From a virus (taxonomy: Duplodnaviria; Caudoviricetes), in IMG/VR virus record IMGVR_UViG_3300021426_000070, positions 32,001 to 96,000 of that record: a stretch of DNA of 64,000 nucleotides; one strand, written 5' to 3'. Below the pieces are notes generated by a model. The model searched no databases. It saw nothing but the letters and a program-made list of their open reading frames with translations, and had not been told where the DNA came from. Positions 1,392 to 53,617 of this stretch are shown in pieces (position 1 is the stretch's first letter; every line of letters begins with the position of its first letter). A program made the translations under genes and the position numbers.

Positions 1392-2810
1392 CTATAATCC
1401 TTTTATTTGGTCAAGTAATCCGCTTATTTCCTCTTTGTGCTTATTGTATGGTATATGATTTAATACCCATCTTAAAGCCACTATCTGCTCATTACTCGGA
1501 CTCCAAGTTGACTGAGGTCTGAGGGATTTGAGTTTATTTTTGAGCCATTTGATTTCATCTTCTATCCTGTCAGGTATATACTCATTCCAAGGATTCACGA
1601 GGTCTTTAATAATATCGCTAAGTATCTTTTCATCCTCTTCACTCCACTCATTTGTGGTTGTGCAATTTGCTTTACAGCCAACTCTGTTTTTGATGGATTT
1701 GAGCCAATCCTCTGCCCCTTCATAATATATTGCGTTTTTAACAAGTATCTTTATTGCATCATCTGTCATTAATGCTTCAAGAATAACTTTCTTTATTTTC
1801 TCGTCCTCTTCACTCCAAGGCTTCTGCTCAATCTTCTCCAATTTCTTCTCGTATGGATTCCATCTGTAGCCCGCTTCCATAATTGCCTTTTCAAGTCGTT
1901 CACGCTGTTCTTTGGTTGATGGCTTTATGTCTTGCATCCAAGTCCATTCACCATGTTCCCCATCTGACTCAATTTTGAAACCATCATCGACACTTATACC
2001 ACAATAAGCATAACTATATCCATTTGCATCTATCTTCTTGAAAATAAATGGCAAATCACCATCAGCAAGCACATCACCATCTTTTGCATCAGCAAGAGTC
2101 CACAAACGATAATTATCATCTATATGTTCTATGCAAAGTGTTCCAATGGTATCTTCGTCAAATTTAAGTCTATAATTGTCTTCTAATATATCAATAACCC
2201 TAACTACATTACCATCTTCAACGTTTACAAGCCAATTGTCTTTGTGAAACTTTGGCTTAACCTCAGCAGGCTTATGCTCACCTTGATTTTCAAGTAACAC
2301 AAAACAATCCGAACATATGTTTATTAGTTCTGCAACAAAGTTATCATCAACATAATAAAAATCACCATCACGGAAACAAGTATATTTCGGTGAAGCAATA
2401 CATTTATATGTTTCACCAATCTTAACAGAATTTTTGCTTTGCTTTTCGGTACTAACATGCTGTATAAGCTCTCTGTTGAAGCTTATATCAACGCCATTAT
2501 CTCTTGCGCACATACCCCATACATTGCCGTTATATGTAAAGCTCACACCACTATATGGATTACCGCTCTGCTCTTCAAGCCATGCGTAAATATCTTCTTT
2601 CCTTTTTTGTGTAAAGTCTTTATGAAGTTCTACTGCTTCTACAATATCTTTCTTTATCCTATCGTCATCAGACTCGGCAAGTTCGTGGAATAAGTTTCGG
2701 ATATAAAACTTGTCGTTTTCACTTATAGACGAATCACCAAGTATGTGTTTAGCATCGCTTAGTTTTTTGTCATAGGCTTTTGCCTTTTCATCAATCGTAA
2801 GTTCTCTCAT
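1392..2810 (-). CDS. modular hypothetical protein, WSEEDE-repeat family
   Basis: Repeated WSEEDEK and PKF modules shared with ORFs at 25246-28084; likely start MRELT (ATG at 2810). Confidence 0.7.
   Translation of the reverse strand: MRELTIDEKAKAYDKKLSDAKHILGDSSISENDKFYIRNLFHELAESDDDRIKKDIVEAVELHKDFTQKRKEDIYAWLEEQSGNPYSGVSFTYNGNVWGMCARDNGVDISFNRELIQHVSTEKQSKNSVKIGETYKCIASPKYTCFRDGDFYYVDDNFVAELINICSDCFVLLENQGEHKPAEVKPKFHKDNWLVNVEDGNVVRVIDILEDNYRLKFDEDTIGTLCIEHIDDNYRLWTLADAKDGDVLADGDLPFIFKKIDANGYSYAYCGISVDDGFKIESDGEHGEWTWMQDIKPSTKEQRERLEKAIMEAGYRWNPYEKKLEKIEQKPWSEEDEKIKKVILEALMTDDAIKILVKNAIYYEGAEDWLKSIKNRVGCKANCTTTNEWSEEDEKILSDIIKDLVNPWNEYIPDRIEDEIKWLKNKLKSLRPQSTWSPSNEQIVALRWVLNHIPYNKHKEEISGLLDQIKGL
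1512..1646. repeat. 135-bp near-identical duplicated segment (other copy at 26428-26562)
   Basis: Direct sequence comparison; encodes WSEEDEK.LSDIIKDLVNPWNEYIPDRIEDEIKWLKNKLKSLRPQ. Confidence 0.85.
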
Positions 2811-3048
2811 CGTGTTTCTTCGTCTATTATTGAATTGTTTTTGAGGAAAGGACAATCATCCAAAACCCCATTTTCGTTTCTAAAATCTTTATCACCACTA
2901 TTCAGATAGCAATGAATATATCTTCCAAGCATTTCACATCTATCGTGGTCGCAGTCATCATCATCCCCATGGAAACAATTGTGGGGACAGCCATAGCAAT
3001 TAGTGAAATGTACTATTGTAGTATAAGTAAATCTTTTATCATCCATAA

Positions 3049-3468
3049 TCACAACATCTTAAGTTTTTCTATTTCCTTTTCAGCCTCAATAGCTTTCTCT
3101 TTATGATAAGCAAGTTCTTTCTCTTTTTCTTTGATTTGAATTTCTTTCACTTTTCCGTTCCACATCAACCACTTTGCTTTGACTGTATCTCTGAAAGTAG
3201 CAAGATTTGCATATCTCTGAATGCTTTCAATATCTTTTGGATGCTCATCAAATATTATCCTAACCATAGGAGAAACAGCTAAGTAATCAATACTCAGATG
3301 CACCATATCTTCATACTCTTGTGGGTATGCTTTGATAAAGTCCTGAACTTCCTTGTTTTCTATCCAATAAAACAGCCAATGTTTAGTGTCTGTTATATAT
3401 TTGTGTATATCAGAATTTAACTCTGAAACCCTTTTAATTAACTCTGTTACTTCCATAATCACAACCAA
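3049..3468 (-). CDS. hypothetical protein
   Basis: Intact ORF in operon. Confidence 0.55.
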   Translation of the reverse strand: MVVIMEVTELIKRVSELNSDIHKYITDTKHWLFYWIENKEVQDFIKAYPQEYEDMVHLSIDYLAVSPMVRIIFDEHPKDIESIQRYANLATFRDTVKAKWLMWNGKVKEIQIKEKEKELAYHKEKAIEAEKEIEKLKML

Positions 3469-4009
3469 TAAAAAGAATTACCATTAGCATCTACTTTTAG
3501 CAAATGAAGCACTTTTCTATTAACCCATACAAGGGCTGTGAATATATATCTTTTCATAATAACTTATTTTTTAATAAATTCTCTCATCTTATCTAGCACT
3601 GATAATTTGTAATTGTCACCAACGGTATGTTCATATACCCATTTAAGGGCATCATAATATCCACTATCATATTCATTCATAATCACTTTTTCTTTATAAG
3701 GTTCTTTATTTCCTCTAAATCTCTCCTAAGCAAAACCCCTACATAAAGGAATAGTGCTACTGCGCCAACTAACACGAATATAATCAAATATCCCATTTCC
3801 ATAACTTCATCCATCTATTATCATTTTTATTGGGTAAGACAAAAAAGTAGCCACTATCTGACCTATTGCGGCAATCCCCGTGTACTCAAGACATTCGGAC
3901 AGATTATTGTCCTTATCAGTCCATATGGAGGCATAGAAAAACGCTGCCACGATAAACCATATGGTTATTATCGTAATCGAACCTTTCTTCATAATCTCAT
4001 TGTTATTTG

Positions 4010-4471
4010 TTATATTGCATGTGGTAGTATATCTCCATTCTCATAGTAACGGTTGCCTTTCACCTTACTTTCTTCGCCCTCGTCTTTCCGATTTGCTTTT
4101 TGGCGATGCTCTTCAACATCGTGTATCATCTTAAGCATTACCACACAAGCATCTATCGGGCTAGCAAAACCGCTTTTTATCATTGGCATGTGACTTGATG
4201 GAGAAAGACAACTGATAGTCCACCCATCGAAATCACGAAACAGCGTTGGCTTGTTCAACTGCTCGAGCAACGCAACCAATGACCAACAGGGACACCAATA
4301 AGTTTTAATAGCATCTTTATTAGGTGTGCCAACTTTAGGTGTGTTTCTTATTTCTTTAGAAACGTCACCTCTCCATGCTAACCAATAGTACATATCCGCA
4401 CTTTCAATGGGTAGCATCTTACTCAAAGCCTTACTTTGGGACAAGTCTGTGTATGCTTTAATTGTCGTCAT
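4010..4471 (-). CDS. hypothetical protein, paralogue of 5754-6149
   Basis: Shared YT..QS..L...LP..SAD and PCWSL.AL motifs. Confidence 0.65.
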   Translation of the reverse strand: MTTIKAYTDLSQSKALSKMLPIESADMYYWLAWRGDVSKEIRNTPKVGTPNKDAIKTYWCPCWSLVALLEQLNKPTLFRDFDGWTISCLSPSSHMPMIKSGFASPIDACVVMLKMIHDVEEHRQKANRKDEGEESKVKGNRYYENGDILPHAI

Positions 4472-4774
4472 AACTACTCATTTTAATTACAGGTTCAATA
4501 TCATAATTTTCACTAACAAATATTTCAGCACTGTATTCAAGATATCGGCACTGAGTTTTAAATGTTTTTATTTTTTCTTCTATAGTTCTTTTATTTGTTG
4601 CCATAGTTATTTCTTTAATCGTTTTTTAATAACATTAATAAAAATTGAGCCGATGAATATATTGTAAACCATTCCAATCGGCTTGTTATATTTCATAACC
4701 TTGAAGAATGGTTTCCAAACATAATCAAGTATCGTAAAATTCACTATAAACCTTTTAAACTCCATTGGTTTTTC

Positions 4775-5753: not shown

Positions 5754-6149
5754 TCACAACATTTTTGTTTCATGTAACTTCTCAATCATAGCCACACAAG
5801 CATCAATTGGGTTGCTTGCTGTGTCTCCTATGTGGCAGAAAGTACAATTCTCATTATAAGTGTCGCATCGCCAACCATTATAAGTTTTATGCAATGAAGG
5901 GTTTGGCAGAACACTAATCAACGCTGCAAGCGACCAACAAGGAAGATATATTGCATCTGTTTCTTTATAACTTTCAGCAACAATCTCACTATATCCAAAA
6001 GATGGAGATTTCAACGCATCAGGGTCATCCTTCCAAAAGAACCATTTCGAATCCGCACTATTATACGGTAGTATCTCAGCAAGCTTACGGCTTTGCTCAA
6101 TAGTTGTGTATGTTCTAATTAATGCCATAGTCGTTTTACTTAAAATCAA
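5754..6149 (-). CDS. hypothetical protein, paralogue of 4010-4471
   Basis: Shared motifs. Confidence 0.65.
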   Translation of the reverse strand: MILSKTTMALIRTYTTIEQSRKLAEILPYNSADSKWFFWKDDPDALKSPSFGYSEIVAESYKETDAIYLPCWSLAALISVLPNPSLHKTYNGWRCDTYNENCTFCHIGDTASNPIDACVAMIEKLHETKML

Positions 6150-6442
6150 AACTCACCTTCTTGCGCTTTCTTTGCCGTAATCTCTATGACACGCCAAAAG
6201 AAATCATGGAACGTATATACCTCTTTCTCAGCCTCAGACCATATCTTCGGCTCATCGGCAATATACGATAGCATAGCCACCTTCGACTTGTCAATGCTAT
6301 TGTAGCTGCTGTCCTCATTCCAAAGGATAGCGTCCTTGTCAACGCCAACGAACACATAGTAGTCTTTCGTCAACGCATAAAAAGCTATTTTCAGCCTTTC
6401 GATAAATGATGTTCTCTGTTTCATAATCATAATCAATTTTAG

Positions 6443-6516
<74 letters not shown>

Positions 6517-6569
6517 GTTGCCAACCGCCGTTGGCTTTGTTTAACCAAAAAAATCTCGCAAAATAACAG

Positions 6570-6643
6570 TGATTCCGATGGGGCTCGAACCCATGACCTA
6601 TTGTTTAGGAAACAATTGCTCTATCCTACTGAGCTACAGAACC
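6570..6643 (-). tRNA. tRNA-Arg(CCT)
   Basis: Anticodon arm ATTGT-TTCCTAA-ACAAT; canonical D and T arms. Confidence 0.92.
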
Positions 6644-6741
6644 AAGTGCCCACCACCGTGGGCAGAAAAAAATAACCAAAAATAAATAATTAAAAACCAA
6701 ATTACTAAATAGATACCTCACTATCTCAGTGATTTATGAAA

Positions 6742-6862
6742 GAGCCGTCACCCGTTTTATATCGCATATAAGACTACCACGAGGTACTTTCGGGGCGGGA
6801 ATTTGCCCCTATCCTTAAAGCCTCCCAAGGGCAAGTTTACGCTCATGCCTAACTAACGGCTC
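6742..6862 (-). ncRNA. candidate ~120-nt structured RNA
   Basis: Non-coding stretch closed by a GAGCCGT/ACGGCTC terminal helix, next to tRNAs. Confidence 0.35.
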
Positions 6863-6870
6863 ATATATAA

Positions 6871-7194
6871 AAGCGGCACTGCACAGACTTGTGAATAAGG
6901 CGAAACGGCTCTTGCAAGTTATCTTCGAGTACCATTCAGTTTACCTTTATGGCGTATTACCAAATGACCTTCTCATTGGAGCTTTAAGCCCAACTACCTA
7001 CATTCTACCTTTATTCGCACTCTCAGACAACCGTCACGCCAAAAGCCCCCTATCATAGAGCAACCCACATAACGGGCGCAACTATCGCTACCGTAAATAC
7101 CATCACCTTGTATCGTCTCAGCGAGCCTAGCCCAATTTGGCACACTGCACACGGATATAGAAGGGCTGCACGGAAATCTGTACTAGTGCCGCTT
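6871..7194 (-). ncRNA. candidate ~325-nt structured RNA
   Basis: No minus-strand ORF; ends AAGCGGCACT.GTACAGA / TCTGTGC.AGTGCCGCTT form a long terminal helix. Confidence 0.5.
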
Positions 7195-7469
7195 GTGTCA
7201 ATCTTTCAAAGAACGCTTTTTCTTCTTCTTACCTACGACCTCTGTCCGATACCCCTTTATGTGCCCGTCTCTGTCGTACACGGGGTGCTCGATGAACTCG
7301 TTGTAACTATCAATACCATTCGCATCAACCATACTAGGCTCATGAAACGCATCTGCCGTTTCTACCATCGGGTCGTTGTCGCTCAAGTGCATATCGTCAT
7401 CGTGCCATGATGGAGGCAGCAATGTTTTATTGATACGCTTGTTTGTCGTTTGGGTAAATGTATCTCGTC

Positions 7470-7898
7470 TCATAGCCCATTCTTGAGTCTTTTTAATTCT
7501 TTCTCTAACTCAGCAATCTTTGCCTTTCTCTTATCAGCCTCTTCTATCTCGTCTTCTAAGATACTCACCTCTTCGTTTGCCATACGCCAGAAACGCCCAA
7601 GCATCTCACCGTACGTCTCATCTTCATCTTTCTCAGCATAAAAGCCGTTATCCTCATAGCCGTGCCATTTCTGCACCAACCGAGTGTAACCTTGCTTCTT
7701 CAACTCACCAAGGAACTTAACCATCCTATCAATGTCACCAAAGAACTGTTCTTCGTCAATTTCTTTGCTGTGTACGGTCTTCTCTCTTACGAACGCAAAT
7801 GGGTTTCTCTTCTCTAAACGCTCAATAGCCATTTCAGCTAGCTCTTGCTCACTGCTGAAATAATCCTCTAAGAGCTTTTTTCTTATCTTCTTATCCAT
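7470..7898 (-). CDS. hypothetical protein
   Basis: Intact ORF. Confidence 0.6.
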   Translation of the reverse strand: MDKKIRKKLLEDYFSSEQELAEMAIERLEKRNPFAFVREKTVHSKEIDEEQFFGDIDRMVKFLGELKKQGYTRLVQKWHGYEDNGFYAEKDEDETYGEMLGRFWRMANEEVSILEDEIEEADKRKAKIAELEKELKRLKNGL

Positions 7899-10359: not shown

Positions 10360-10689
10360 TTAACCATTTATACTACCCTTTGCAGCCGCTGCAGCTCTAT
10401 CTTCATTAGTTGCTCTCATGGCGTTTGTCATCAGAGTAGTAGCTAAAGTACCTTCTTGTGTTCTTGCACCACCAATAGTAAGGAAAGGTCTTGAACCTGC
10501 TATTTCTCTTGATGAAGTCCATCGTGAAGCTATCTCTCTAACTTGCTGTGCTCGTCTTATGTTACCAACAGCATTTGCTTGTCGGGCAAGGCGGCTTGCT
10601 GTCCTATTGATGTTCTCAGCAGTACGGAACGTGGTTCGCTTTAAACCATCACCACCGTAACTAATACGACCATTTCTATTTGTTCTGAC
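10360..10689 (-). CDS. GTC-start Arg-rich protein A (109 aa, VRTNRNG...KGSING)
   Basis: Open frame begins at GTC directly after an in-frame TGA; promoter at 10722; shares RTAENI..TA.RL with protein B; absent from the ORF track. Confidence 0.75.
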   Translation of the reverse strand, partial: VRTNRNGRISYGGDGLKRTTFRTAENINRTASRLARQANAVGNIRRAQQVREIASRWTSSREIAGSRPFLTIGGARTQEGTLATTLMTNAMRATNEDRAAAAAKGSING

Positions 10690-10721: not shown

Positions 10722-10731
10722 TGCAAAGATA
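10722..10731 (-). promoter_or_regulatory. Bacteroidota -7 promoter box upstream of GTC-start gene A
   Basis: TATCTTTGCA. Confidence 0.65.
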
Positions 10732-13990: not shown

Positions 13991-14556
13991 TGCCCGCCCT
14001 CTTCTTTCTCTAACTCGTTCTCTCTCTCAAGCCATGCAGATATGCTTACGCCATTCTTGACCTTTATCTGCACGTCACTATCCTCTATGCCCCTTTGGAT
14101 ATTCCTAAACTGAGGGTCATGGTGGTAAAGGAAGTTAGCAAGTGCTTGCATGTTTGGTGCTGTCTCTTGCTCTGACTCGGTGATATCCTCTATGCGGTTA
14201 TTCTTGTCAGCAACGCCATTGACAACATTGTACCTCATACGTACAACCTTGCCTTTCACCTTAATGCCTCCGAGGGCTGCTTTGAGGTATCTACCCCTTA
14301 CAATTCCTAGTACTCGAGAACGTCCGTGTGCTAACTCTTCGGAGATACGAGCACCCCTTTTTGCGTTCTCTTCATCATTCCATCCTTTGTATTTACCCGC
14401 TTTCATTTCTGAAAATGTAGTGGGCGTTAATCCCGCAACCCCTAGACTATCACCTAGAGCATATGCAATTTCCCCATCTTGGAGACCTTGCATAGCGAGG
14501 GCATATATCTCTTTGTAGAAGTCCTCGCTATCATAGTCGAACTTTGGTTTTGCCAT
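13987..14556 (-). CDS. terS: terminase small subunit
   Basis: HTH-like N-terminus (QDGEIAYAL); APNMQAL..FL motif; lies upstream of terL. Confidence 0.7.
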   Translation of the reverse strand: MAKPKFDYDSEDFYKEIYALAMQGLQDGEIAYALGDSLGVAGLTPTTFSEMKAGKYKGWNDEENAKRGARISEELAHGRSRVLGIVRGRYLKAALGGIKVKGKVVRMRYNVVNGVADKNNRIEDITESEQETAPNMQALANFLYHHDPQFRNIQRGIEDSDVQIKVKNGVSISAWLERENELEKEEGGQ

Positions 14557-14702: not shown

Positions 14703-15044
14703 TTATCCCGAGATAGCTGCTTTTGCAGCGGTATTGGGTGTGTACGTCTGTGATTGTCGTGCAGCCACCTCATAGTTTACGGTGTTTCCTATTACCTTGG
14801 TGAGTACTGCACCACTATCATTAGTAAGGGCTTCATTGGGTCTAATGCTGTCTGCCCTACCTACTGCCCTTAGATAGTTAGCCTCTATGGTTCTGATACG
14901 CTGCTGCCTTTGTCTGTTGCCTCTTGCAGCCGCTACTAACCGCCTTGCAGTCTCCCTTATATTCTCAGCAGTTCTATACGTGCTGTTGTTGCCATCAAGT
15001 GGGCTTGTGCTATTGTAAAATGATGGATTCTTTAATCTTTTGAC
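14703..15044 (-). CDS. GTC-start Arg-rich protein B (113 aa, VKRLKNP...AAISG)
   Basis: No Met anywhere; in-frame TAG 5 codons upstream of GTC; AGGAGG 8 nt upstream. Confidence 0.78.
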   Translation of the reverse strand, partial: VKRLKNPSFYNSTSPLDGNNSTYRTAENIRETARRLVAAARGNRQRQQRIRTIEANYLRAVGRADSIRPNEALTNDSGAVLTKVIGNTVNYEVAARQSQTYTPNTAAKAAISG

Positions 15045-15060: not shown

Positions 15061-15309
15061 TTATCCGTTACTACTACCTTTTGCAGCTAGTGGTGCGTAC
15101 TTGTCACCGATACGAGCACCATAAGATACCTTGATGTTTGCCCTACGAGACCAATCCACGCTCTGCAAGCGGTCGTTGATATTGTTTCTATACTCTTGTG
15201 CGATACGTGAGATACTTGCTAGACGTGTGCCCCTAGCTGTATTCGACATACGGGCTGCTTGCTCGTTGATATCGCCTATAGACTTTGCCATTGGTTCTCT
15301 CCGTCTGAC
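15061..15309 (-). CDS. GTC-start Arg-rich protein C (82 aa, VRRREPMAKS...KGSSNG)
   Basis: AGGAGG 7 nt before the in-frame GTC AGA; alternative ATG at 15291. Confidence 0.7.
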   Translation of the reverse strand, partial: VRRREPMAKSIGDINEQAARMSNTARGTRLASISRIAQEYRNNINDRLQSVDWSRRANIKVSYGARIGDKYAPLAAKGSSNG

Positions 15310-15320
15310 TCTGTACCCTC

Positions 15321-15521
15321 CTATCCGTTTGAATTTGATAAGGCATTGAGCATATTCGCTCTTGCTCTGCCTATTCTGTTATAGTTATCTTGCCCATACT
15401 GCCTTAGTAATGCATTCGCACGGCGATTAATGGCTCGTCCTACCATGGCTCTTCTTGCATATTGCCCCAAACCTCTTACATCACTAGTACGATATTCCAA
15501 TGTTCTCTTACTTGCTCTGAC
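15321..15521 (-). CDS. GTC-start Arg-rich protein D (66 aa, VRASKR...SNSNG)
   Basis: AGGAGG-AAGC-TGA-GTC-AGA: in-frame TGA immediately before GTC. Confidence 0.72.
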   Translation of the reverse strand, partial: VRASKRTLEYRTSDVRGLGQYARRAMVGRAINRRANALLRQYGQDNYNRIGRARANMLNALSNSNG

Positions 15522-15666: not shown

Positions 15667-15924
15667 TTAACCATTACTCAATCCCATATACGAGCTACGT
15701 GCAAACTGCAGTCTGTTGGCTCTGCCCATATTGCGCATATACTCATCTGTGTTGTCCTCAGCCGACACGTTGCCACGAGCCGCCTTATAGCTTGATTTGT
15801 TACGTATGTTGCTTACGTACCTCATAGCTGCTTGGAAAGCTCTATCCAAACGTTCCCCGTCTGTCCTAGCCGCTATGCGGTTGTACTGACGTGTTATATC
15901 ACTTACTGACTTTGTTCTTCTGAC
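15667..15924 (-). CDS. GTC-start Arg-rich protein F (85 aa, VRRTKSVSDI...YMGLSNG)
   Basis: TAG-TGT-CGG-GTC-AGA; conserved KS..DI..Q N-terminus lies upstream of the TTG used by the ORF track. Confidence 0.75.
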   Translation of the reverse strand, partial: VRRTKSVSDITRQYNRIAARTDGERLDRAFQAAMRYVSNIRNKSSYKAARGNVSAEDNTDEYMRNMGRANRLQFARSSYMGLSNG

Positions 15925-15930
15925 CCGACA

Positions 15931-16176
15931 CTAACCATTACTCATACCCATATAGGTACTACGTGAATACTTTCTGTTGTCTATCTCATTAATATTACCA
16001 TTGCCACGAAGTGCATTTCTGTATGCGCTCGAATAGCTTGGTGTGTTCTGAATGTTATTCAGATACCTAAGAAACGTTCTTCCTATGCGGTCTTGTCTCT
16101 GAGGATTACCCTCTGAGCGTTCCCACAAAGCTTGCGCTTGGTCAAGTATATCATTCTTACTCTTATTTCTTCTGAC
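15931..16176 (-). CDS. GTC-start Arg-rich protein G (81 aa, VRRNKSKNDI...YMGMSNG)
   Basis: TAA-AGC-CGA-GTC-AGA; paralogous to F and H. Confidence 0.75.
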   Translation of the reverse strand, partial: VRRNKSKNDILDQAQALWERSEGNPQRQDRIGRTFLRYLNNIQNTPSYSSAYRNALRGNGNINEIDNRKYSRSTYMGMSNG

Positions 16177-16182
16177 TCGGCT

Positions 16183-16395
16183 TTATCCGTTTGTAAGACC
16201 CATATAGGTAGAGCGTGAATACTTTCTGTTGTAAGCACCCTCACCGCCTTTTCGAAAGCTGCGTTGGCGCATAATCCTATCGGTGTATCTGTCAGCCGCT
16301 ATGTTAGCCGCTGCCACCCTAGAAGCCGTTGCTCGTGGATTGTTCTCTATCCTATCGGCTTGCTCTAAGATTTCTCCAAAACTCTTCCCTCTGAC
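16183..16395 (-). CDS. GTC-start Arg-rich protein H (70 aa, VRGKSFGEI...YMGLTNG)
   Basis: No ATG/GTG/TTG between the upstream in-frame TGA and GTC; shares NRKYSRSTYMG with G. Confidence 0.75.
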   Translation of the reverse strand, partial: VRGKSFGEILEQADRIENNPRATASRVAAANIAADRYTDRIMRQRSFRKGGEGAYNRKYSRSTYMGLTNG

Positions 16396-17041: not shown

Positions 17042-17413
17042 TTATCCTACCGCATTACCCATCTTTGCAGAATTGGACGAATTAGCTGATGAGCCACGAT
17101 AGACTTCCCTTCCTAGCTCTGCATAGCGTTCACGATTGTAATCACGGATAAAGCGTCCGTGCGTTGCATTTGCTGCATTGGGGTTAGCTGCCGCACGTCT
17201 CTCTATCTCTCTCTGTATGTTGTCGATATAACGCTGACCGATGGCACTAAGCCGCTCTCTGTTCCTATACCACGTGTCCGTACCATAGGTGCTGCCCTCG
17301 ATACGGGCTAACTGAGCCCTTACAGACTCGATAGAGCGACCTCTTCGGGTGCTACGCCTAGTATTGGCGTTCACCCTCGCATTGCCTAAGTATGATAAAT
17401 TACCTTTTCTGAC
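17042..17413 (-). CDS. GTC-start Arg-rich protein J (123 aa, VRKGNLSY...MGNAVG)
   Basis: The promoter box at 17434-17443 lies inside the ORF-track N-terminal extension; the first motif after it is AAAGGA-TTGCAGA-GTC-AGA. Confidence 0.7.
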   Translation of the reverse strand, partial: VRKGNLSYLGNARVNANTRRSTRRGRSIESVRAQLARIEGSTYGTDTWYRNRERLSAIGQRYIDNIQREIERRAAANPNAANATHGRFIRDYNRERYAELGREVYRGSSANSSNSAKMGNAVG

Positions 17414-17433: not shown

Positions 17434-17443
17434 TGCAAAGATA
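17434..17443 (-). promoter_or_regulatory. Bacteroidota -7 promoter box driving the GTC-gene array
   Basis: TATCTTTGCA. Confidence 0.65.
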
Positions 17444-29474: not shown

Positions 29475-30215
29475 AATCTCTTTTCTTTTTATTTATTAAC
29501 ACCTACTTATCTAAATCAACAACCTTTGAAGCGCAATAATGCTTGAAGAAAAAGTCTGTATGTATGAACCGCCCCATTATGATAGGCTCACCACTATACG
29601 ACCAATCCATATAACAAAGCGTATCGCCGCTCTCAGTCTCTACAATAGCAAACACATTGATTAGCATGCCATCGCTTTTATCTAAAAGCTTCTGTAAGTC
29701 CTTTGACACGTAAATCTTCTTGCTGTCTTCTGCTTTAAAGACAAACGACTTTGCTCTCTCTTTATCCATAACTCTTGTACAGTTTTTAACGTGTGTCTCA
29801 CGCTCTAAATAAATTTGACGATGCAAAGATAAGTAAATTATCCTACACCGCCAAACAAAACAGCAACAAAAATGTATTTGTTTACACTATTTAACCTTTC
29901 ACCACAACCGCTTAACAAAATTACACATTCTATGCGATTTGGTGGGCTTCTTACATATCGTCCAAGTCTTGCTCCAACTTCTTTTTCCTCGTCTCCAATG
30001 ACTGAGTGCGTAACTTGATAGCGTTCATAATGCTTTCATGTACCAATCCAGCAAGGTTGCAGCTATTTTTCATGACATAGACAATACGCTCCGCATATTC
30101 AACACTGTTAGGCTTCTTACTTATTTCACCAAGATGGTTCTTAAAGTCTTGCAGTTCCGCAATCTCTTTGTTTGTCTTTTCAAGACTTTCAATAAGTTTC
30201 TTAACTTCGATAGCT

Positions 30216-30956
30216 TTACTTATTTTCATTTTCTTTATCTTTTTTATAGTGATACTCTAATAATACTCTCTGACACAAGGGAAACGTCTGATATATCTTC
30301 TGTAAGTCTTGCGGATAATTGGTCTCAAGCCATAGTAGGCAATCGACATTAAAGCCTATGCCGTTGGATGCCTTTCCGACCTTTGCCCCGTCTCCGCTAG
30401 TAGCAAGCGAATACATAACGGGTTCGGGGAGATTATGCATCTTCATATAGCTGAGTATTTGCTTTTGCGAAAACTCCGCACACGGGTAGGCTTGATAGTT
30501 ATCTGTGTAATGGTTCTCCTTAAAGCGGGTAATCATAAGGTTGCGGTTCATGCCGTCAGCCTTCTTCATGCCTAGGAACACCCATTGCGTGTTGTATTTC
30601 AGCCGCAGAGCCTTGATGACATCAGCAAGCTTCAGCAACTTTTGGTTTGGGTGTGGCGTACAATACAATCCGCTTCTTAGTATATACGTCAGATTCCAAT
30701 GCGGCACTTCCAAGAACTCCACATTCGGGTATTTGGCTTTCACCCAATTTATCCATCTGTCTATATGCTCTAAGCCTTGAACGAAATACAAAAACACACA
30801 TATCACCTTCTTGAACCTCGGATATATTAAATCTAACGTTACTATAGAATCCTTTCCGAGCGAACACATGAGGATGCACGTATCAGTCTGACTAGCCACG
30901 TAGTCGATACAATCATTAGCCGCTATCAGCGGATTACTTCTTATCTTCTTTGCCAT
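30216..30956 (-). CDS. PAPS-reductase-like / PP-loop family protein
   Basis: SLGKDS PP-loop; GMKKADGMNR. Confidence 0.8.
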   Translation of the reverse strand: MAKKIRSNPLIAANDCIDYVASQTDTCILMCSLGKDSIVTLDLIYPRFKKVICVFLYFVQGLEHIDRWINWVKAKYPNVEFLEVPHWNLTYILRSGLYCTPHPNQKLLKLADVIKALRLKYNTQWVFLGMKKADGMNRNLMITRFKENHYTDNYQAYPCAEFSQKQILSYMKMHNLPEPVMYSLATSGDGAKVGKASNGIGFNVDCLLWLETNYPQDLQKIYQTFPLCQRVLLEYHYKKDKENENK

Positions 30957-32422
30957 ATATTAAAGTATATCTTCGTCTTCAATCTCTTCATTCTCGTTGT
31001 ACCACTCACAATCATTAGGCTTGAAATAATCTTCTACCCTACAACCTTTAAAGCAGAAATTATTCTCGCTTTCATATCTTTCACACATCACACAACAATG
31101 CTTTGGGATAGGGTACACCTCATAGATATCTGTTTTCAGATACGGCTTCTTCCGCCCTTTTAACTTATCACAAAAAGTATATTTCGGTGCATTGTTCTTT
31201 GTGATATAATGCGAATCAGCACCATCTATTACCTCTTCTAACGGCTTGTAATAAAACGCAAACGAGCCCGTTACCAACTCTTTTACCTTTACAACCTCAG
31301 CCATACGACCACCATCATGCGAATTGCCGATAAATATCTTGTCACCTACTTTGGCATTTCCGAACCAATAGAACCCTTCTGTGCGTTCATGTGGGTGTAT
31401 TATTGCCACACACCGCTTTCTATCTACCCACCCGTCATTACAACGATAGGCTTTAACGCCTAGAGCCATCAGCTTATCATGGAACTCTGAGCACGTCCTA
31501 TTAAACTCGTTGGTAATATCCACCATCATACCAACCAAGTTGCTGTCATTGACAACGACACTGCCGCCATTGCCTAAATCTATCTTCTTGCCGATAGACC
31601 CATCTTCATTAACATAAAGTGGGAACTTACCGCCTTTCAACCTCTCTTCCATTACTCATCAACCTTAGCGTATTTGACAATATCAAGGAAGTTGTTTATT
31701 CGTGACACAACAGAATCTATCTTGCCATAGGCATTAGAATACCTCCTTAATGCCGTCCTCATAGCCCCATCCTCAGAACAAGCCCCTACAGCCTTTTCTA
31801 CAATCCCTATCCTATCTTTAATGGACTGCATACGCTCCAAAGCCTTCTCGAGCTGCTTCATGGCAATATCCATCATGTTTTTGTCAACGCTGAATGTAAC
31901 CAAAGGCGGAATATCTTCCATCTTATCCGTATCAGACAAGGCTTGTATTAGTAACTTGTTCTGTCTTTGGGCTGTATCAAGCTGCTGCTGCAAGCCATCT
32001 GTCACATCCCTAACAACAGCATCCCTACTAGACTGCATTTCTTGCAGATTGATAGCTAGGGCTTTATTTTTCCTAACTGCCGCCTCATATTGGCTACGAA
32101 CAACAGAAATACGTTTCTGCAATCGCTCTTTGTCCTCTTTGAGCTCGCTGTTCTCTCTCTCCAACACCTCAGCATGCCTCCGTGCCTTTTCAACTTGCTC
32201 GTTAATTCTTCGGTAGTCCTTGATGATGTACTTCATTCGCACCTCATAAGGAAGTTCGTCTTGTGGTCTGCCCATAATAAATTGTTTGTGCCCATGTGGG
32301 CGGTTAATAAATACCTTGTATAATACGCATCACTTCTGCCGTGCTGATATTCGCTCTCATAGCCTCATGGCGGATGAAACGCTTGAAATCAGCATACACC
32401 TCTTCATCGGAAATCGTCTGTT

Positions 32423-34445: not shown

Positions 34446-34796
34446 TCATAATACAATCTTCTCACCTAACTTATACACAACTTGCGCCTTCAGATACTCT
34501 TCACCGTCTTCGACATACGACACGAGTTCGCCATTCTCGTCCTCGAAAAGCTCTATCCACGCCTCTTCAATCTTGCATGTGTACGTATCATGCCCACAAG
34601 CAAACTGAACGATATCATAGTGCCTAGGTTGGAGCTCACCGTTCACCTCTCGCACATACCCGTCTTCGTCCAAATCACAATACTTCTTTTGTGTGTTCGG
34701 GCGAATCTCTCTCTTGTACTCAGTTACAAGTTTCTGTCTGATAGCCTCTAGTGACTGAGGCTTTGTTGCTAACTTTAATATATCCATTTTAACCAC
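34446..34796 (-). CDS. ASCH/PUA-like protein
   Basis: K..EYKREIRP...Y...YD..QF..G pattern resembles ASCH. Confidence 0.5.
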   Translation of the reverse strand: MVKMDILKLATKPQSLEAIRQKLVTEYKREIRPNTQKKYCDLDEDGYVREVNGELQPRHYDIVQFACGHDTYTCKIEEAWIELFEDENGELVSYVEDGEEYLKAQVVYKLGEKIVL

Positions 34797-35457
34797 TTGT
34801 TAATCCTAACGTATTTCTGTTTACGCCACCTTTGGGCACTTCTTTGTTTCTTGCCTTAATCATAGCATCATAGCTCTTGTGGAGCTTTACCTTGTCACCA
34901 TCTACAATAGCCATACTATTATGCTTGCTGATAACCTCACCAAGTGATTTTGGCAATACCATAGCAAAGACATCGGGACGTTCGCTGCCATCCCATCCTT
35001 CAGGAGCGTATTCGTCATTGAACTTCACCCTACCCGTTGCCTTTGCGCCATACCTAGCATACATACTAGCTAGCTTGTCACCATAGCAGTCAAGCTTCTT
35101 GCCACCAAGAGCAACAGCATAAGGAATTAGCTTACCTAGGCTATTTGAACCCTTGACACTAGAGAATACCGACACCACATCACCATTACGTTTGATAGCT
35201 AACCCCGCTTTGCCGTCTGAGGTAAGATACAAACGCATACGCCCATACTCTTTTTCTGTGTGTAAGTCCACCTTCCATCCGTGGGCATTAGCAGCCTTAC
35301 CGCTTGCTATAGCAGCATGAAAAACCTTTGGCGACACTCTGTTAAGAGAAAGGTTGCTGTGCTTGATACCATTTCTCTCTAACTCAGAGTTTACACGGAG
35401 TGATACAGCCCTAGCGTAAATTTGTTCTCTTGTAAAACTACTCATCTTTCTTGTGAC
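34789..35457 (-). CDS. GTC-start protein K (VTRKMSSF...LGLTSG) with GNAT-like core
   Basis: GCCGA-GTC in frame 4 codons before the ATG at 35445; same C-terminal Gly motif; LDCYG...MYARYG is GNAT-like. Confidence 0.65.
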   Translation of the reverse strand, partial: VTRKMSSFTREQIYARAVSLRVNSELERNGIKHSNLSLNRVSPKVFHAAIASGKAANAHGWKVDLHTEKEYGRMRLYLTSDGKAGLAIKRNGDVVSVFSSVKGSNSLGKLIPYAVALGGKKLDCYGDKLASMYARYGAKATGRVKFNDEYAPEGWDGSERPDVFAMVLPKSLGEVISKHNSMAIVDGDKVKLHKSYDAMIKARNKEVPKGGVNRNTLGLTSG

Positions 35458-36549: not shown

Positions 36550-37071
36550 TTATAGGTTGGTATTAATTACTTCGCCCATGGCGAAATAGAAAAGTAGTGG
36601 TCGGTTCTTCTCACCTCGTGCCTCGAAAGCCGCAAGGTCATCGTCAAGCTCATGACAACCGAACTGCTCTTGTAGCATCTGAACATCTTCTTTGCAAAGA
36701 GCGATAACGCCGTTCTGAATGCACTCGCAATCCAAATGCCATGAATTGTTGTAGTTGTGGAAATGTACGCTGCGGACAATACGCAAAGGAGTGATAATAC
36801 CCGCTTGCAGCATTTCTTGTGTTTCTTTGTCGTTCTTGTGCAGCTCAATGTAGCGGTCAACGTTAGCATCGAACAGACGGCTGCAATAGTGCGGGCTGTA
36901 AGCACGGAACTCTACCGTCTTCTTACCATTCTTGATGTCCTCAGCGTAATTGCGCTTCATAACCAAGTTAAGACTATCTACTGCCGCTGACTTAGGGCAC
37001 TCGGGATGCGCCTTGTAAAAAGCTTCGTAACGCTGCATCCAAGCGTTCATTTCTTTTGCGTTCATACTCAT
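36550..37071 (-). CDS. ASCH domain protein
   Basis: L.MKRNYAEDIKNGKKTVEFRAYS..Y..RL = GxKxxExR ASCH motif; directly downstream of the GAC tRNA. Confidence 0.8.
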   Translation of the reverse strand: MSMNAKEMNAWMQRYEAFYKAHPECPKSAAVDSLNLVMKRNYAEDIKNGKKTVEFRAYSPHYCSRLFDANVDRYIELHKNDKETQEMLQAGIITPLRIVRSVHFHNYNNSWHLDCECIQNGVIALCKEDVQMLQEQFGCHELDDDLAAFEARGEKNRPLLFYFAMGEVINTNL

Positions 37072-37105
37072 TTGTTATTTTATCGTTTATTGAAATTTTT
37101 CAGAG

Positions 37106-37178
37106 TTGCGGCGGGGGAACTCGAATCCCCGACCTCCACCAAGTCAAAGTGGCAAGCTACCATCTGCTCCACGCCGCG
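37106..37178 (-). tRNA. initiator-type tRNA with valine anticodon GAC
   Basis: CGCGGCG-TG-GAGC-AGATGGTA-GCTT-G-CCACT-TTGACTT-GGTGG-AGGTC-GGGGA-TTCGAGT-TCCCC-CGCCGCA-A; C1:A72 mismatch, A11:U24, A73. Confidence 0.88.
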
Positions 37179-37755
37179 ATATTATTCTCTTGTTTATTAT
37201 AAAACTTAAAGTACCTTTACTGCTTATATTATATTCTTGCATTAACTTCTTATATGATACGCCATTTTGATTTTTCTTCTTTATCTCAAGTGCTATTTCG
37301 TCAGAAATCCTATTTTGTGTTTTTACCGCACTTGAAGCGTATTTTGCATTATAAACCCTAACTTCTTTAGGCACGTCCATCATATTTTCTTTATGTGTGC
37401 CAATATCTATATTACTATAGCTATTATCCTTAATATCGTTGTTTAAATGCCTTATTTCTAAATCTTTCTCATATATCTTATTACCAAACTTCTGATACGC
37501 TTGTAATCGATGGATATAAACCTTTATTACCTTCTTTTGGCTAACACGAACACCTAGATACATATAACCTTCTCTACCACAAGTACCTACTTTATTACCT
37601 CGTGGCGAATAGGCTTGTCCGCTTTTGTCAACGTAATAGCCCATTGATTTTGCAATCTCTTCGTAATGACTATACATATCTTTTCTTTTCTCGCTTGCAA
37701 AGATAGCCACTTTATCTGACTTTGGCATATGTTTATCCATTTCTCTCGTTACCAT
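37144..37755 (-). CDS. HNH homing endonuclease
   Basis: YIHRL...EIRHLNND..DN...NI..GTHKEN; its 3' end overlaps the tRNA. Confidence 0.85.
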   Translation of the reverse strand: MVTREMDKHMPKSDKVAIFASEKRKDMYSHYEEIAKSMGYYVDKSGQAYSPRGNKVGTCGREGYMYLGVRVSQKKVIKVYIHRLQAYQKFGNKIYEKDLEIRHLNNDIKDNSYSNIDIGTHKENMMDVPKEVRVYNAKYASSAVKTQNRISDEIALEIKKKNQNGVSYKKLMQEYNISSKGTLSFIINKRIISRRGADGSLPL

Positions 37756-53214: not shown

Positions 53215-53292
53215 TGGGCTTTGTCGGGTTCGAACCAACGTCACTCTTGCGAGTTCACTAGTACAAGCTCTACCAAATTGAGCTAAAAGCCC
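53215..53292 (-). tRNA. tRNA-like element with aberrant anticodon arm
   Basis: Intact acceptor (GGGCTTT/AAAGCCC), D and T arms; no standard 5-bp/7-nt anticodon arm. Confidence 0.6.
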
Positions 53293-53528: not shown

Positions 53529-53617
53529 GGAGGGGAGACGGACTCGAACCGCCGACCATACAGCTATAGCGCAAAGCCTATAAGTTACTGCTGCTCTACC
53601 AACTGAGCTATCCCCCC
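53529..53617 (-). tRNA. tRNA-like element with elongated anticodon arm
   Basis: Canonical acceptor, D and T arms; about 15 extra nt in the anticodon arm (TATAG-GCTTTGCG-CTATA). Confidence 0.65.

Follow-up and report, generated by a model that had tools for sequence, protein, structure and literature searches.

The stretch of DNA analysed here (hereafter the window; 64,000 nucleotides (nt), positions 32,001 to 96,000 of record IMGVR_UViG_3300021426_000070) is part of a 129,359-bp IMG/VR virus record rated complete. Its minus strand carries a transfer RNA (tRNA) gene in which a valine anticodon, GAC, is set in the body of a bacterial initiator tRNA, together with eight paralogous open reading frames (ORFs) that begin at GTC. 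A preliminary description of the window had proposed that the tRNA is an initiator-type valine tRNA that serves the GTC-start genes. This proposal is strongly backed by the co-occurrence of the two across phages, by homologous genes that start with ATG in phages without the tRNA, and by a match between anticodon and start codon. Judging from sequence, we put the probability that the molecule is a natural valine-charged initiator tRNA, which starts translation at GUC and GUU (GUY) codons, at roughly 0.8. The features at the centre of the argument are the following.

37105..37178, minus strand: initiator-derived tRNA, anticodon GAC (ARAGORN, 74 nt, typed tRNA-Val(gac))
17434..17443, minus strand: Bacteroides-type promoter -7 box TATCTTTGCA (identified by motif recurrence)
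17042..17413, minus strand: GTC-start gene, 123 codons, first of the array, starting 30 nt past the -7 box
16183..16395, minus strand: GTC-start gene, 70 codons, context AGA GTC AGA
15931..16176, minus strand: GTC-start gene, 81 codons, GTC 2 codons past an in-frame stop
15667..15924, minus strand: GTC-start gene, 85 codons, GTC 2 codons past an in-frame stop
15321..15521, minus strand: GTC-start gene, 66 codons, GGAGG-7 nt-GTC, directly past TGA
15061..15309, minus strand: GTC-start gene, 82 codons, GGAGG 7 nt upstream
14703..15044, minus strand: GTC-start gene, 113 codons, GGAGG 8 nt upstream, first canonical start at codon 92
10722-10731, minus strand: -7 box of the gene that begins at 10689, whose GTC lies 42 nt past the box
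10360..10689, minus strand: stand-alone GTC-start gene, 109 codons, TGA GTC AGA, first canonical start at codon 86
34789..35457, minus strand: candidate ninth GTC start, context AGC CGA GTC ACA AGA AAG ATG, in the gene of an unrelated protein of 222 amino acids (aa)

The preliminary description had placed the tRNA at 37106-37178, which corresponds to tRNA positions 1-73. All the initiator hallmarks that it listed can be read from the sequence and its cloverleaf: the 5' CGCGG, the C1xA72 mismatch, G2:C71, C3:G70, a purine11:pyrimidine24 pair (A11:U24), the GAC anticodon and discriminator A73. The anticodon loop is UUGACUU, hence U at both positions 37 and 38, and the anticodon stem is made of C:G, C:G, A:U, C:G and U:G pairs (the last three being A29:U41, C30:G40 and U31:G39). 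CCA is not encoded. Our own covariance model (R1) gave the molecule 98.2 bits. The Rfam tRNA model did not report it at the gathering score or at E<=10, a silence that we do not count against its identity as a tRNA because ARAGORN, covariation and our covariance model all back that identity. Single-strand minimum free energy folding did not return a cloverleaf (z = -1.6), which is usual for tRNAs. Nine other tRNAs were called in the 129,359-bp record, and a canonical formylmethionine initiator tRNA (tRNA-fMet) was not among them. As a separate observation, a tRNA cluster includes an 89-nt tRNA to which ARAGORN assigned no type and a four-base anticodon, 'atag' (53529-53617, minus strand; 44.4 bits with Rfam), and a further tRNA at 53215-53292 (minus strand) was reported by Rfam only, at 43.2 bits, and missed by ARAGORN. 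These two could be intron-bearing, suppressor or frameshift tRNAs.

Nearly all genes of the window lie on the minus strand and start with an ATG near the preceding stop. The exceptions are the eight paralogous minus-strand ORFs, of 66-123 codons, which have no ATG, GTG or TTG at their 5' end. All eight begin with V-R/K at a GTC located 0-23 codons past an in-frame stop, and 0-4 codons past it in five of them. The array is flanked by a ParB-like gene on one side and by the two terminase genes, small and large, on the other. The TATCTTTGCA box recurs about 25 times upstream of minus-strand genes and is spaced likewise from their ATGs. Of the nine GTC-start ORFs in the preliminary description, we thus recover eight paralogues without a canonical start and a ninth candidate, at 35457, which shares the AGCCGA-GTC-A motif but is ambiguous, with an ATG 4 codons downstream of its GTC. 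Beside these, three minus-strand ORFs have GA GTT AGA GAA in front of them: at 7509 and 41354 this GTT lies directly past a TGA and the first ATG 12 and 3 codons downstream, and the one at 14014 reads CGA GTT AGA GAA, four codons past an in-frame stop and with its first ATG 8 codons downstream. The set of genes with a GUY start may therefore be larger than the family of basic proteins to which the eight paralogues belong.

To characterize this family, whose genes we call clients of the tRNA, we ran a profile search of 1.8 billion proteins, which returned about 100 homologue clusters, typically of 80-100 aa. The homologues read 'MARKKS..DI..Q....YSRSTYMGLSNG', and the V of the window proteins lines up with their initiator M ('MARKKS...YMGLSNG'). 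A structural model of the family (predicted local distance difference test (pLDDT) score of 94) has a four-helix arrangement in which the N-terminal K-S residues pair with the C-terminal strand, so that in the model the N-terminus would belong to the folded protein. Function searches were uninformative: PHROGs and Pfam gave no named family, Foldseek against PDB gave no match at E<=0.001, ESM Atlas gave unnamed viral clusters only (at 0.83), and a wide VIA-align search gave generic helical matches only, with Z<=6.1, which is noise for helical proteins. In a search for relative loci, an alignment of the eight paralogues gave no conserved stretch and a single paralogue gave no relatives. A database protein of 166 aa (P0001) contains two family copies fused in one ORF; at its junction (...YMGINAG-QEVSR-VKQKRTKS) the R-V-K start motif of the second copy is kept internally. 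The clients that begin with GA-GTY also include other basic families, with the signatures V.RRINR.AGPRRNMNGAG and VRTNRSTF.

The tandem arrays raise the question of whether the start-less ORFs are independent genes at all. They could be silent cassettes, pieces of a readthrough polyprotein or decaying paralogues, to which the tRNA would be unrelated. The tandem arrangement, two cases in which only a stop and two codons separate a copy from the next, in-frame one, and the fusion of two copies in P0001 would fit such an account. We regard it as highly improbable. The window paralogues are only 20-30% identical to each other yet all still open, with a family fold predicted at high confidence; family members that occur singly come after unrelated genes and are equipped with a Shine-Dalgarno sequence of their own; and the signature recurs in at least five phage lineages. 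Stop-codon readthrough in particular was rejected, as the reading frame often changes from one copy to the next and some copies follow a promoter of their own.

The tRNA belongs to a family present in more than 130 IMG/VR contigs. A pattern describing the anticodon arm matched more than 109 contigs (a lower bound), and nearly all of those listed carry one sequence, that of Bacteroides phage BS-TP2. A second pattern led to a third variant, in 21 contigs. Among the loci that we retrieved (labelled L), a further variant occurs in L149, a divergent one, missed by ARAGORN, in L158, and three variants with an AAC anticodon in L139/L143, L145 and L146. The pattern was found in only 2 of 185,579 species-representative genomes, both of them Bacteroides and one on a short contig of a metagenome-assembled genome; the family is therefore phage-borne and not a host tRNA. 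The GenBank record of BS-TP2 (PQ571275.1) annotates no tRNA at the homologous position, 30189-30268. We also considered a remnant of a phage attachment site (attP) and rejected it: the tRNA is complete and covarying, and the two annotated integrase genes of BS-TP2 (1708-3000 and 6087-7301) are about 27 kb and about 23 kb away from it; it adjoins neither of them and sits in the replication/packaging region.

Over seven variants, 94.6% of the cells of the cloverleaf are paired and both sides have changed in 12 of 21 pairs, values that none of 500 shuffles reached and that no slid control came near. Position 1:72 is never a standard pair in any of the seven, being CxA or CxC. G2-G5 are constant, G2:C71 and C3:G70 are present throughout, and A11:U24 is found in six variants (U:A in L146). 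Constant as well are U31:G39, the loop UUNACUU, A35, C36 and A73. For a host comparison we used the initiator tRNA from a Bacteroides genome with such a prophage. Outside the anticodon arm, the phage tRNAs are identical to it at 40-48 of 57 positions (70-84%), and inside the arm at 2-6 of 17; the values for the window tRNA are 45/57 and 2/17. What is shared includes C1xA72, G2:C71, C3:G70, A11:U24, A73 and the D-arm, variable-loop and T-loop sequences. The phage molecules differ in their anticodon (GAC or AAC, not CAU), in their loop, with U37 and U38 for the A37 and A38 of the host, in an anticodon stem without the three G:C pairs that the host tRNA-fMet has, and in being phage-encoded with dedicated client genes. 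The phage molecule is an initiator tRNA with its anticodon arm replaced.

We then asked whether the tRNA and the GTY-start genes occur together, working in both directions. From tRNA to genes, a hidden Markov model of the family was run against six-frame translations of all tRNA-bearing loci. It found family members 1.2-2.6 kb downstream of the tRNA, all of which lack a canonical start and begin GA-GTC or GA-GTT, often directly past a TGA and 7-9 nt past GGAGG. We also applied a definition that does not depend on the family (GA-GTY at most 6 codons past a stop, no canonical start between, at least 45 codons open). Under this definition, 77 of the 78 tRNA loci having at least 3 kb downstream contain at least one GA-GTY-start ORF; with other codons in place of GTY it gave 25 (ATY), 8 (GTA), 7 (CTY) and 4 (ACY), and none for GCY, GAY and GGY. 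The co-occurrence across related phages that the preliminary description called for is thus present, and it extends over several phage lineages.

From genes to tRNA, loci were fetched through a conserved C-terminal peptide, a procedure blind to the start codon. The loci with GTT V-starts (L139/L143 and L145) have the AAC tRNA about 3 kb upstream, and in L144, with GTC V-starts, the GAC tRNA lies elsewhere on the same contig. Two others with GTC V-starts, L141/L142, showed no tRNA, but they are fragments of 11-14 kb (G005, about 15% complete), too short for its presence to be judged. Family members with M-starts were found without the tRNA: L140, complete at 165 kb, has eight ATG-GCA paralogues and no tRNA, and L137, L138 and L148 likewise have M-start members and no tRNA. 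In no contig long enough to judge did we find GTC-start genes without the tRNA, the combination that the preliminary description named as speaking against its proposal. Independent ENA contigs, reached through database proteins with a called ATG a few codons before 'V-R-R-K-S', repeat the GA-GTC-AGA motif; the called ATG in these genes is spurious, because it abuts or overlaps the Shine-Dalgarno sequence. Only one of these contigs is long (L158, 49 kb); it contains the tRNA together with ten GA-GTC-start ORFs. As an observation on the M-start loci themselves, some family copies, in L137 (9651-9933), L138 (11046-11328) and L148 (9998-10262), have their ATG-GCA-CG start out of frame with the body, with a run of 8-9 G between the two, which may reflect slipped-strand phase variation or a sequencing artefact.

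The start codon follows the anticodon. Counting distinct genes, phages with the GAC tRNA have 36 GTC and 6 GTT starts and those with the AAC tRNA have 0 GTC and 6 GTT (Fisher p=7.5e-5); the use of GTT by GAC phages is allowed by G:U wobble. GTA starts are not above background at tRNA loci. Within the eight client genes, GTA accounts for 12 of 20 internal valine codons and GTC/GTT for 3 (p=0.004), compared with a genome-wide share of 46% for GTC plus GTT. This scarcity of GTY inside the clients may reflect avoidance of internal initiation or mere A-rich codon bias. Together with the finding that GTC is the rarest valine codon of the phage (17%), it argues against a role of the tRNA in elongation.

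These results bear directly on a competing account, in which the molecule is an ordinary elongator tRNA-Val that boosts GUC/GUU decoding. The start-less genes would then be initiated by other routes, either by the host fMet-tRNA aided by a strong Shine-Dalgarno sequence or by termination-reinitiation, and the co-occurrence would be hitch-hiking. ARAGORN does type the molecule as tRNA-Val, its anticodon stem is of the elongator type without three G:C pairs, and phages often carry elongator tRNAs, as this phage does with its nine others. Nevertheless, this account seems quite improbable to us. All variants retain the 1:72 mismatch, a feature that works against EF-Tu, even as adjacent pairs covary, and the tRNA body is that of the host initiator. 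Traits of an elongator tRNA-Val (a Watson-Crick 1:72 pair, pyrimidine 11:purine 24, a purine at position 37) are missing, the molecule having C1xA72, A11:U24 and U37 instead. GUC and GUU are two positions away from AUG and hence not near-cognate for fMet-tRNA, and stand-alone clients with their own promoter exclude reinitiation. Furthermore, the dependence of the start codon on the anticodon and the background level of GTA starts are at odds with a general decoding aid.

The sequence context of the starts provides another line of evidence. We compared 35 distinct V-starts with 17 M-start homologues. In the V-starts, position -2 is G in 35/35, -1 is A in 33/35 and otherwise G, +4 is A in 35/35, and +5 is G in 29 and A in 6; a Shine-Dalgarno-like run is present in 24 of the 35. 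The M-start homologues have T at -1 in 13/17, reading ATG-GCA, and the difference at -1 is significant (p=4e-8). In each class the base at -1 is thus complementary to nucleotide 37 of the initiator concerned: the A of the V-starts to U37 of the phage tRNA, and the T of the M-starts to A37 of the host tRNA. In E. coli, A37 of tRNA-fMet pairs with U at -1, which was demonstrated at scale, including compensatory A37 mutants (PMC10018350). The phage case resembles this quadruplet pairing in the complementarity between position 37 and the base just before the start codon. In E. coli the effect is a modest modulation, whereas in the phages the -1 base is nearly invariant and the G(-2) opposite U38 is invariant, which suggests, at the level of sequence, an obligatory interaction of 4-5 bp. 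We infer that U37, and perhaps U38 against G(-2), extends the codon-anticodon helix. Such pairing would explain the odd pyrimidine at position 37, and it may offset the missing three G:C pairs. The AR at +4/+5 may simply be Arg or Lys coding.

Two genes adjoin the tRNA in the window.

36550..37071, minus strand: ASCH-like ORF, 173 aa, starting 33 nt past the tRNA (position and homology)
37144..37755, minus strand: HNH endonuclease ORF that runs at its 3' end into the first 35 nt of the tRNA (PHROGs and Pfam HNH)

In other lineages a TAYCTTTG promoter box lies 10-18 nt upstream of the tRNA 5' end; in the window the HNH ORF occupies that place. A homologous ORF of 119-173 aa is found 20-100 nt downstream of the tRNA in every tRNA lineage (mutual BLAST homology), and the BS-TP2 record names the tRNA-adjacent ORF an ASCH-domain protein. 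Against the Pfam ASCH model (PF04266; cut-off 21.2 bits), the ORFs of the window (18.1 bits) and L158 (19.8 bits) scored below the cut-off and that of L149 (24.8 bits) above it; the ORFs after the tRNA in L117 and L139 gave no match. A PDB sequence search with the ASCH-like protein gave nothing meaningful, and its fold model was poor (pLDDT 56) and unsuitable as a search query. The gene order of the BS-TP2-like type was read from L020, on the minus strand at about 1996-4584 in plus-strand coordinates: promoter, tRNA, ASCH-like gene, a small Gly/Arg-rich V-start ORF, a PAPS-reductase-like gene, a V-start gene, a ParB-like gene, a further V-start gene and a small terminase-like gene. This order is fixed, with the client genes interleaved with genes of the packaging region.

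A second alternative is that of a tRNA-shaped regulator or decoy which is not an adaptor, with the ASCH-like protein as its partner. As a regulator, its 7-nt loop would pair with the GAGUYAR motif and open or mark the mRNAs; as a decoy, it would soak up a host nuclease or toxin aimed at the initiator tRNA. The entire loop UUGACUU does complement the conserved mRNA heptamer, a gene of an RNA-binding type always adjoins the tRNA, and BS-TP2-like phages carry toxin-antitoxin genes. Even so, we consider this alternative improbable. It leaves unexplained how genes without a start codon are initiated. The features that have been kept are exactly the identity elements for valyl-tRNA synthetase (ValRS; A35, C36, A73) and formyltransferase (C1x72, G2:C71, C3:G70), and the GAC/AAC switch obeys wobble at the third codon position, as decoding predicts. 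A decoy should retain the initiator anticodon arm, yet that is the part that has been replaced.

Several observations weigh against a valine initiator, or reduce the weight of the evidence for it. The three consecutive G:C pairs (29-31:39-41) are absent from the window tRNA and were found in none of the seven variants, and U37 and the A53:U61 pair of the window tRNA are atypical for tRNAs. The preliminary description had raised these caveats itself, and sequence and cloverleaf confirm them as real, although U37 turns out to be informative and not a defect. In E. coli, an initiator requires the three G:C pairs in order to function (PMC6393288). The loci are also phylogenetically non-independent: about 100 of them represent one BS-TP2-like lineage, and the whole comprises about 5-6 tRNA lineages and some 35 distinct start contexts, so counts of the 77/78 type overstate the number of independent observations. 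L146 is mixed, having an AAC tRNA and main-family members that nonetheless start with ATG; its sole GTT-start candidate is a different ORF of 237 codons, 700 nt past the tRNA, with GGAGG-N7 and TGA GTT AGA AAG. The cultured phage BS-TP2 has one candidate client only, AGC TGA GTC GGT before gp53. The GTC start of gp53 (30718 in PQ571275.1) is unannotated, the coding sequence being called from an ATG 11 codons downstream. This candidate came from a motif-based scan, used in place of a generic scan of BS-TP2 for start-less open frames that was swamped by antisense noise. Finally, TGA stops and Arg/Lys coding, instead of pairing with the tRNA loop, could account in part for the conserved GA that precedes GTY and the AGA that follows.

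Overall, we favour a valine-charged initiator, and it would work as follows. The phage tRNA would be a second initiator, descended from the Bacteroides initiator tRNA and fitted with a new anticodon arm. By E. coli rules, A35, C36 and A73 are identity elements of ValRS, and the host enzyme would use them to charge the phage tRNA with valine. The combination of a 1:72 mismatch with G2:C71 and C3:G70 marks a tRNA for formylation and works against EF-Tu; the host formyltransferase would probably formylate the phage tRNA through these elements. A search of the phage for genes of a formyltransferase or a deformylase found none, and host enzymes would therefore act at these steps. The tRNA would then enter the P site at GUC or GUU, at Shine-Dalgarno distance and in the context G(-2) A(-1) GUY A(+4) R(+5), where U37, and perhaps U38, would pair with A(-1) and G(-2) and lengthen the codon-anticodon helix. 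The clients are sets of genes for small, very basic proteins, located beside the ParB and terminase genes; they would go unseen by the host initiator, and their products would bear valine or formyl-valine N-termini.

Candidate purposes for such an arrangement are a late regulon insulated from host translation, a formyl-valine N-terminus, and resistance to attack on the host initiator. The preliminary description had suggested a translational switch. In BS-TP2-like phages a single late region houses both the tRNA and its clients, an arrangement that speaks for insulation or N-terminal chemistry and not for a temporal switch. A fuller scheme is possible, if doubtful, and we put it forward tentatively. 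In it, U37 and U38 would form a helix of at least 5 bp with GA-GUY that replaces the three G:C pairs, the ASCH-like protein would bind RNA and mature, protect or load the tRNA, and an arginine-rich regulon of the packaging region would be made only in this way and would keep its formyl-valine, giving a fully orthogonal system.

The principle has precedents in engineering. Work on an engineered E. coli initiator tRNA with a GAC anticodon reportedly goes back to the Schulman and RajBhandary laboratories in the 1990s. Once given a valine anticodon, the initiator tRNA of E. coli accepts valine and starts translation at the corresponding codon. With an engineered AAC initiator in E. coli, valylation was accompanied by Val and formyl-Val N-termini from GUU starts, detected by mass spectrometry, as well as by slow deformylation and altered protein stability (bioRxiv 10.1101/2021.05.25.445580); an engineered initiator with the AAC anticodon is also described in 10.64898/2025.12.21.695813. 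The phage tRNA resembles these molecules, which are valylated and partly formylated, in joining an initiator body to a valine anticodon matched to GUC/GUU starts. They were made in the laboratory, retain the native anticodon stem and A37 and are inefficient, whereas the phage tRNA is natural and conserved, with a remodelled stem-loop, a co-adapted A(-1) context, a linked ASCH-like gene and native clients. Phage elongator tRNAs and the suppressor tRNAs of recoded gut phages are likewise phage-borne and alter the decoding of phage mRNAs; they act in the A site or in stop reassignment, whereas the present tRNA bears the identity elements of an initiator and is linked to start codons. Our full-text literature search found engineered initiator tRNAs with changed anticodons and did not find a natural case.

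As far as we know, fMet-tRNA-fMet is regarded as the starter of all natural translation in bacteria. If our reading is true, a natural second initiator, one for valine codons, would depart from this rule and would give the phages a private initiation channel. It would bear on whether an initiator can work without the three G:C pairs, with pairing between position 37 and -1 compensating for them, and it would offer synthetic biology naturally optimised orthogonal pairs of initiator and start codon. Gene finders and tRNA models overlook both the tRNA and its clients, so that a class of genes in abundant Bacteroides phages of the human gut would at present be mis-annotated.

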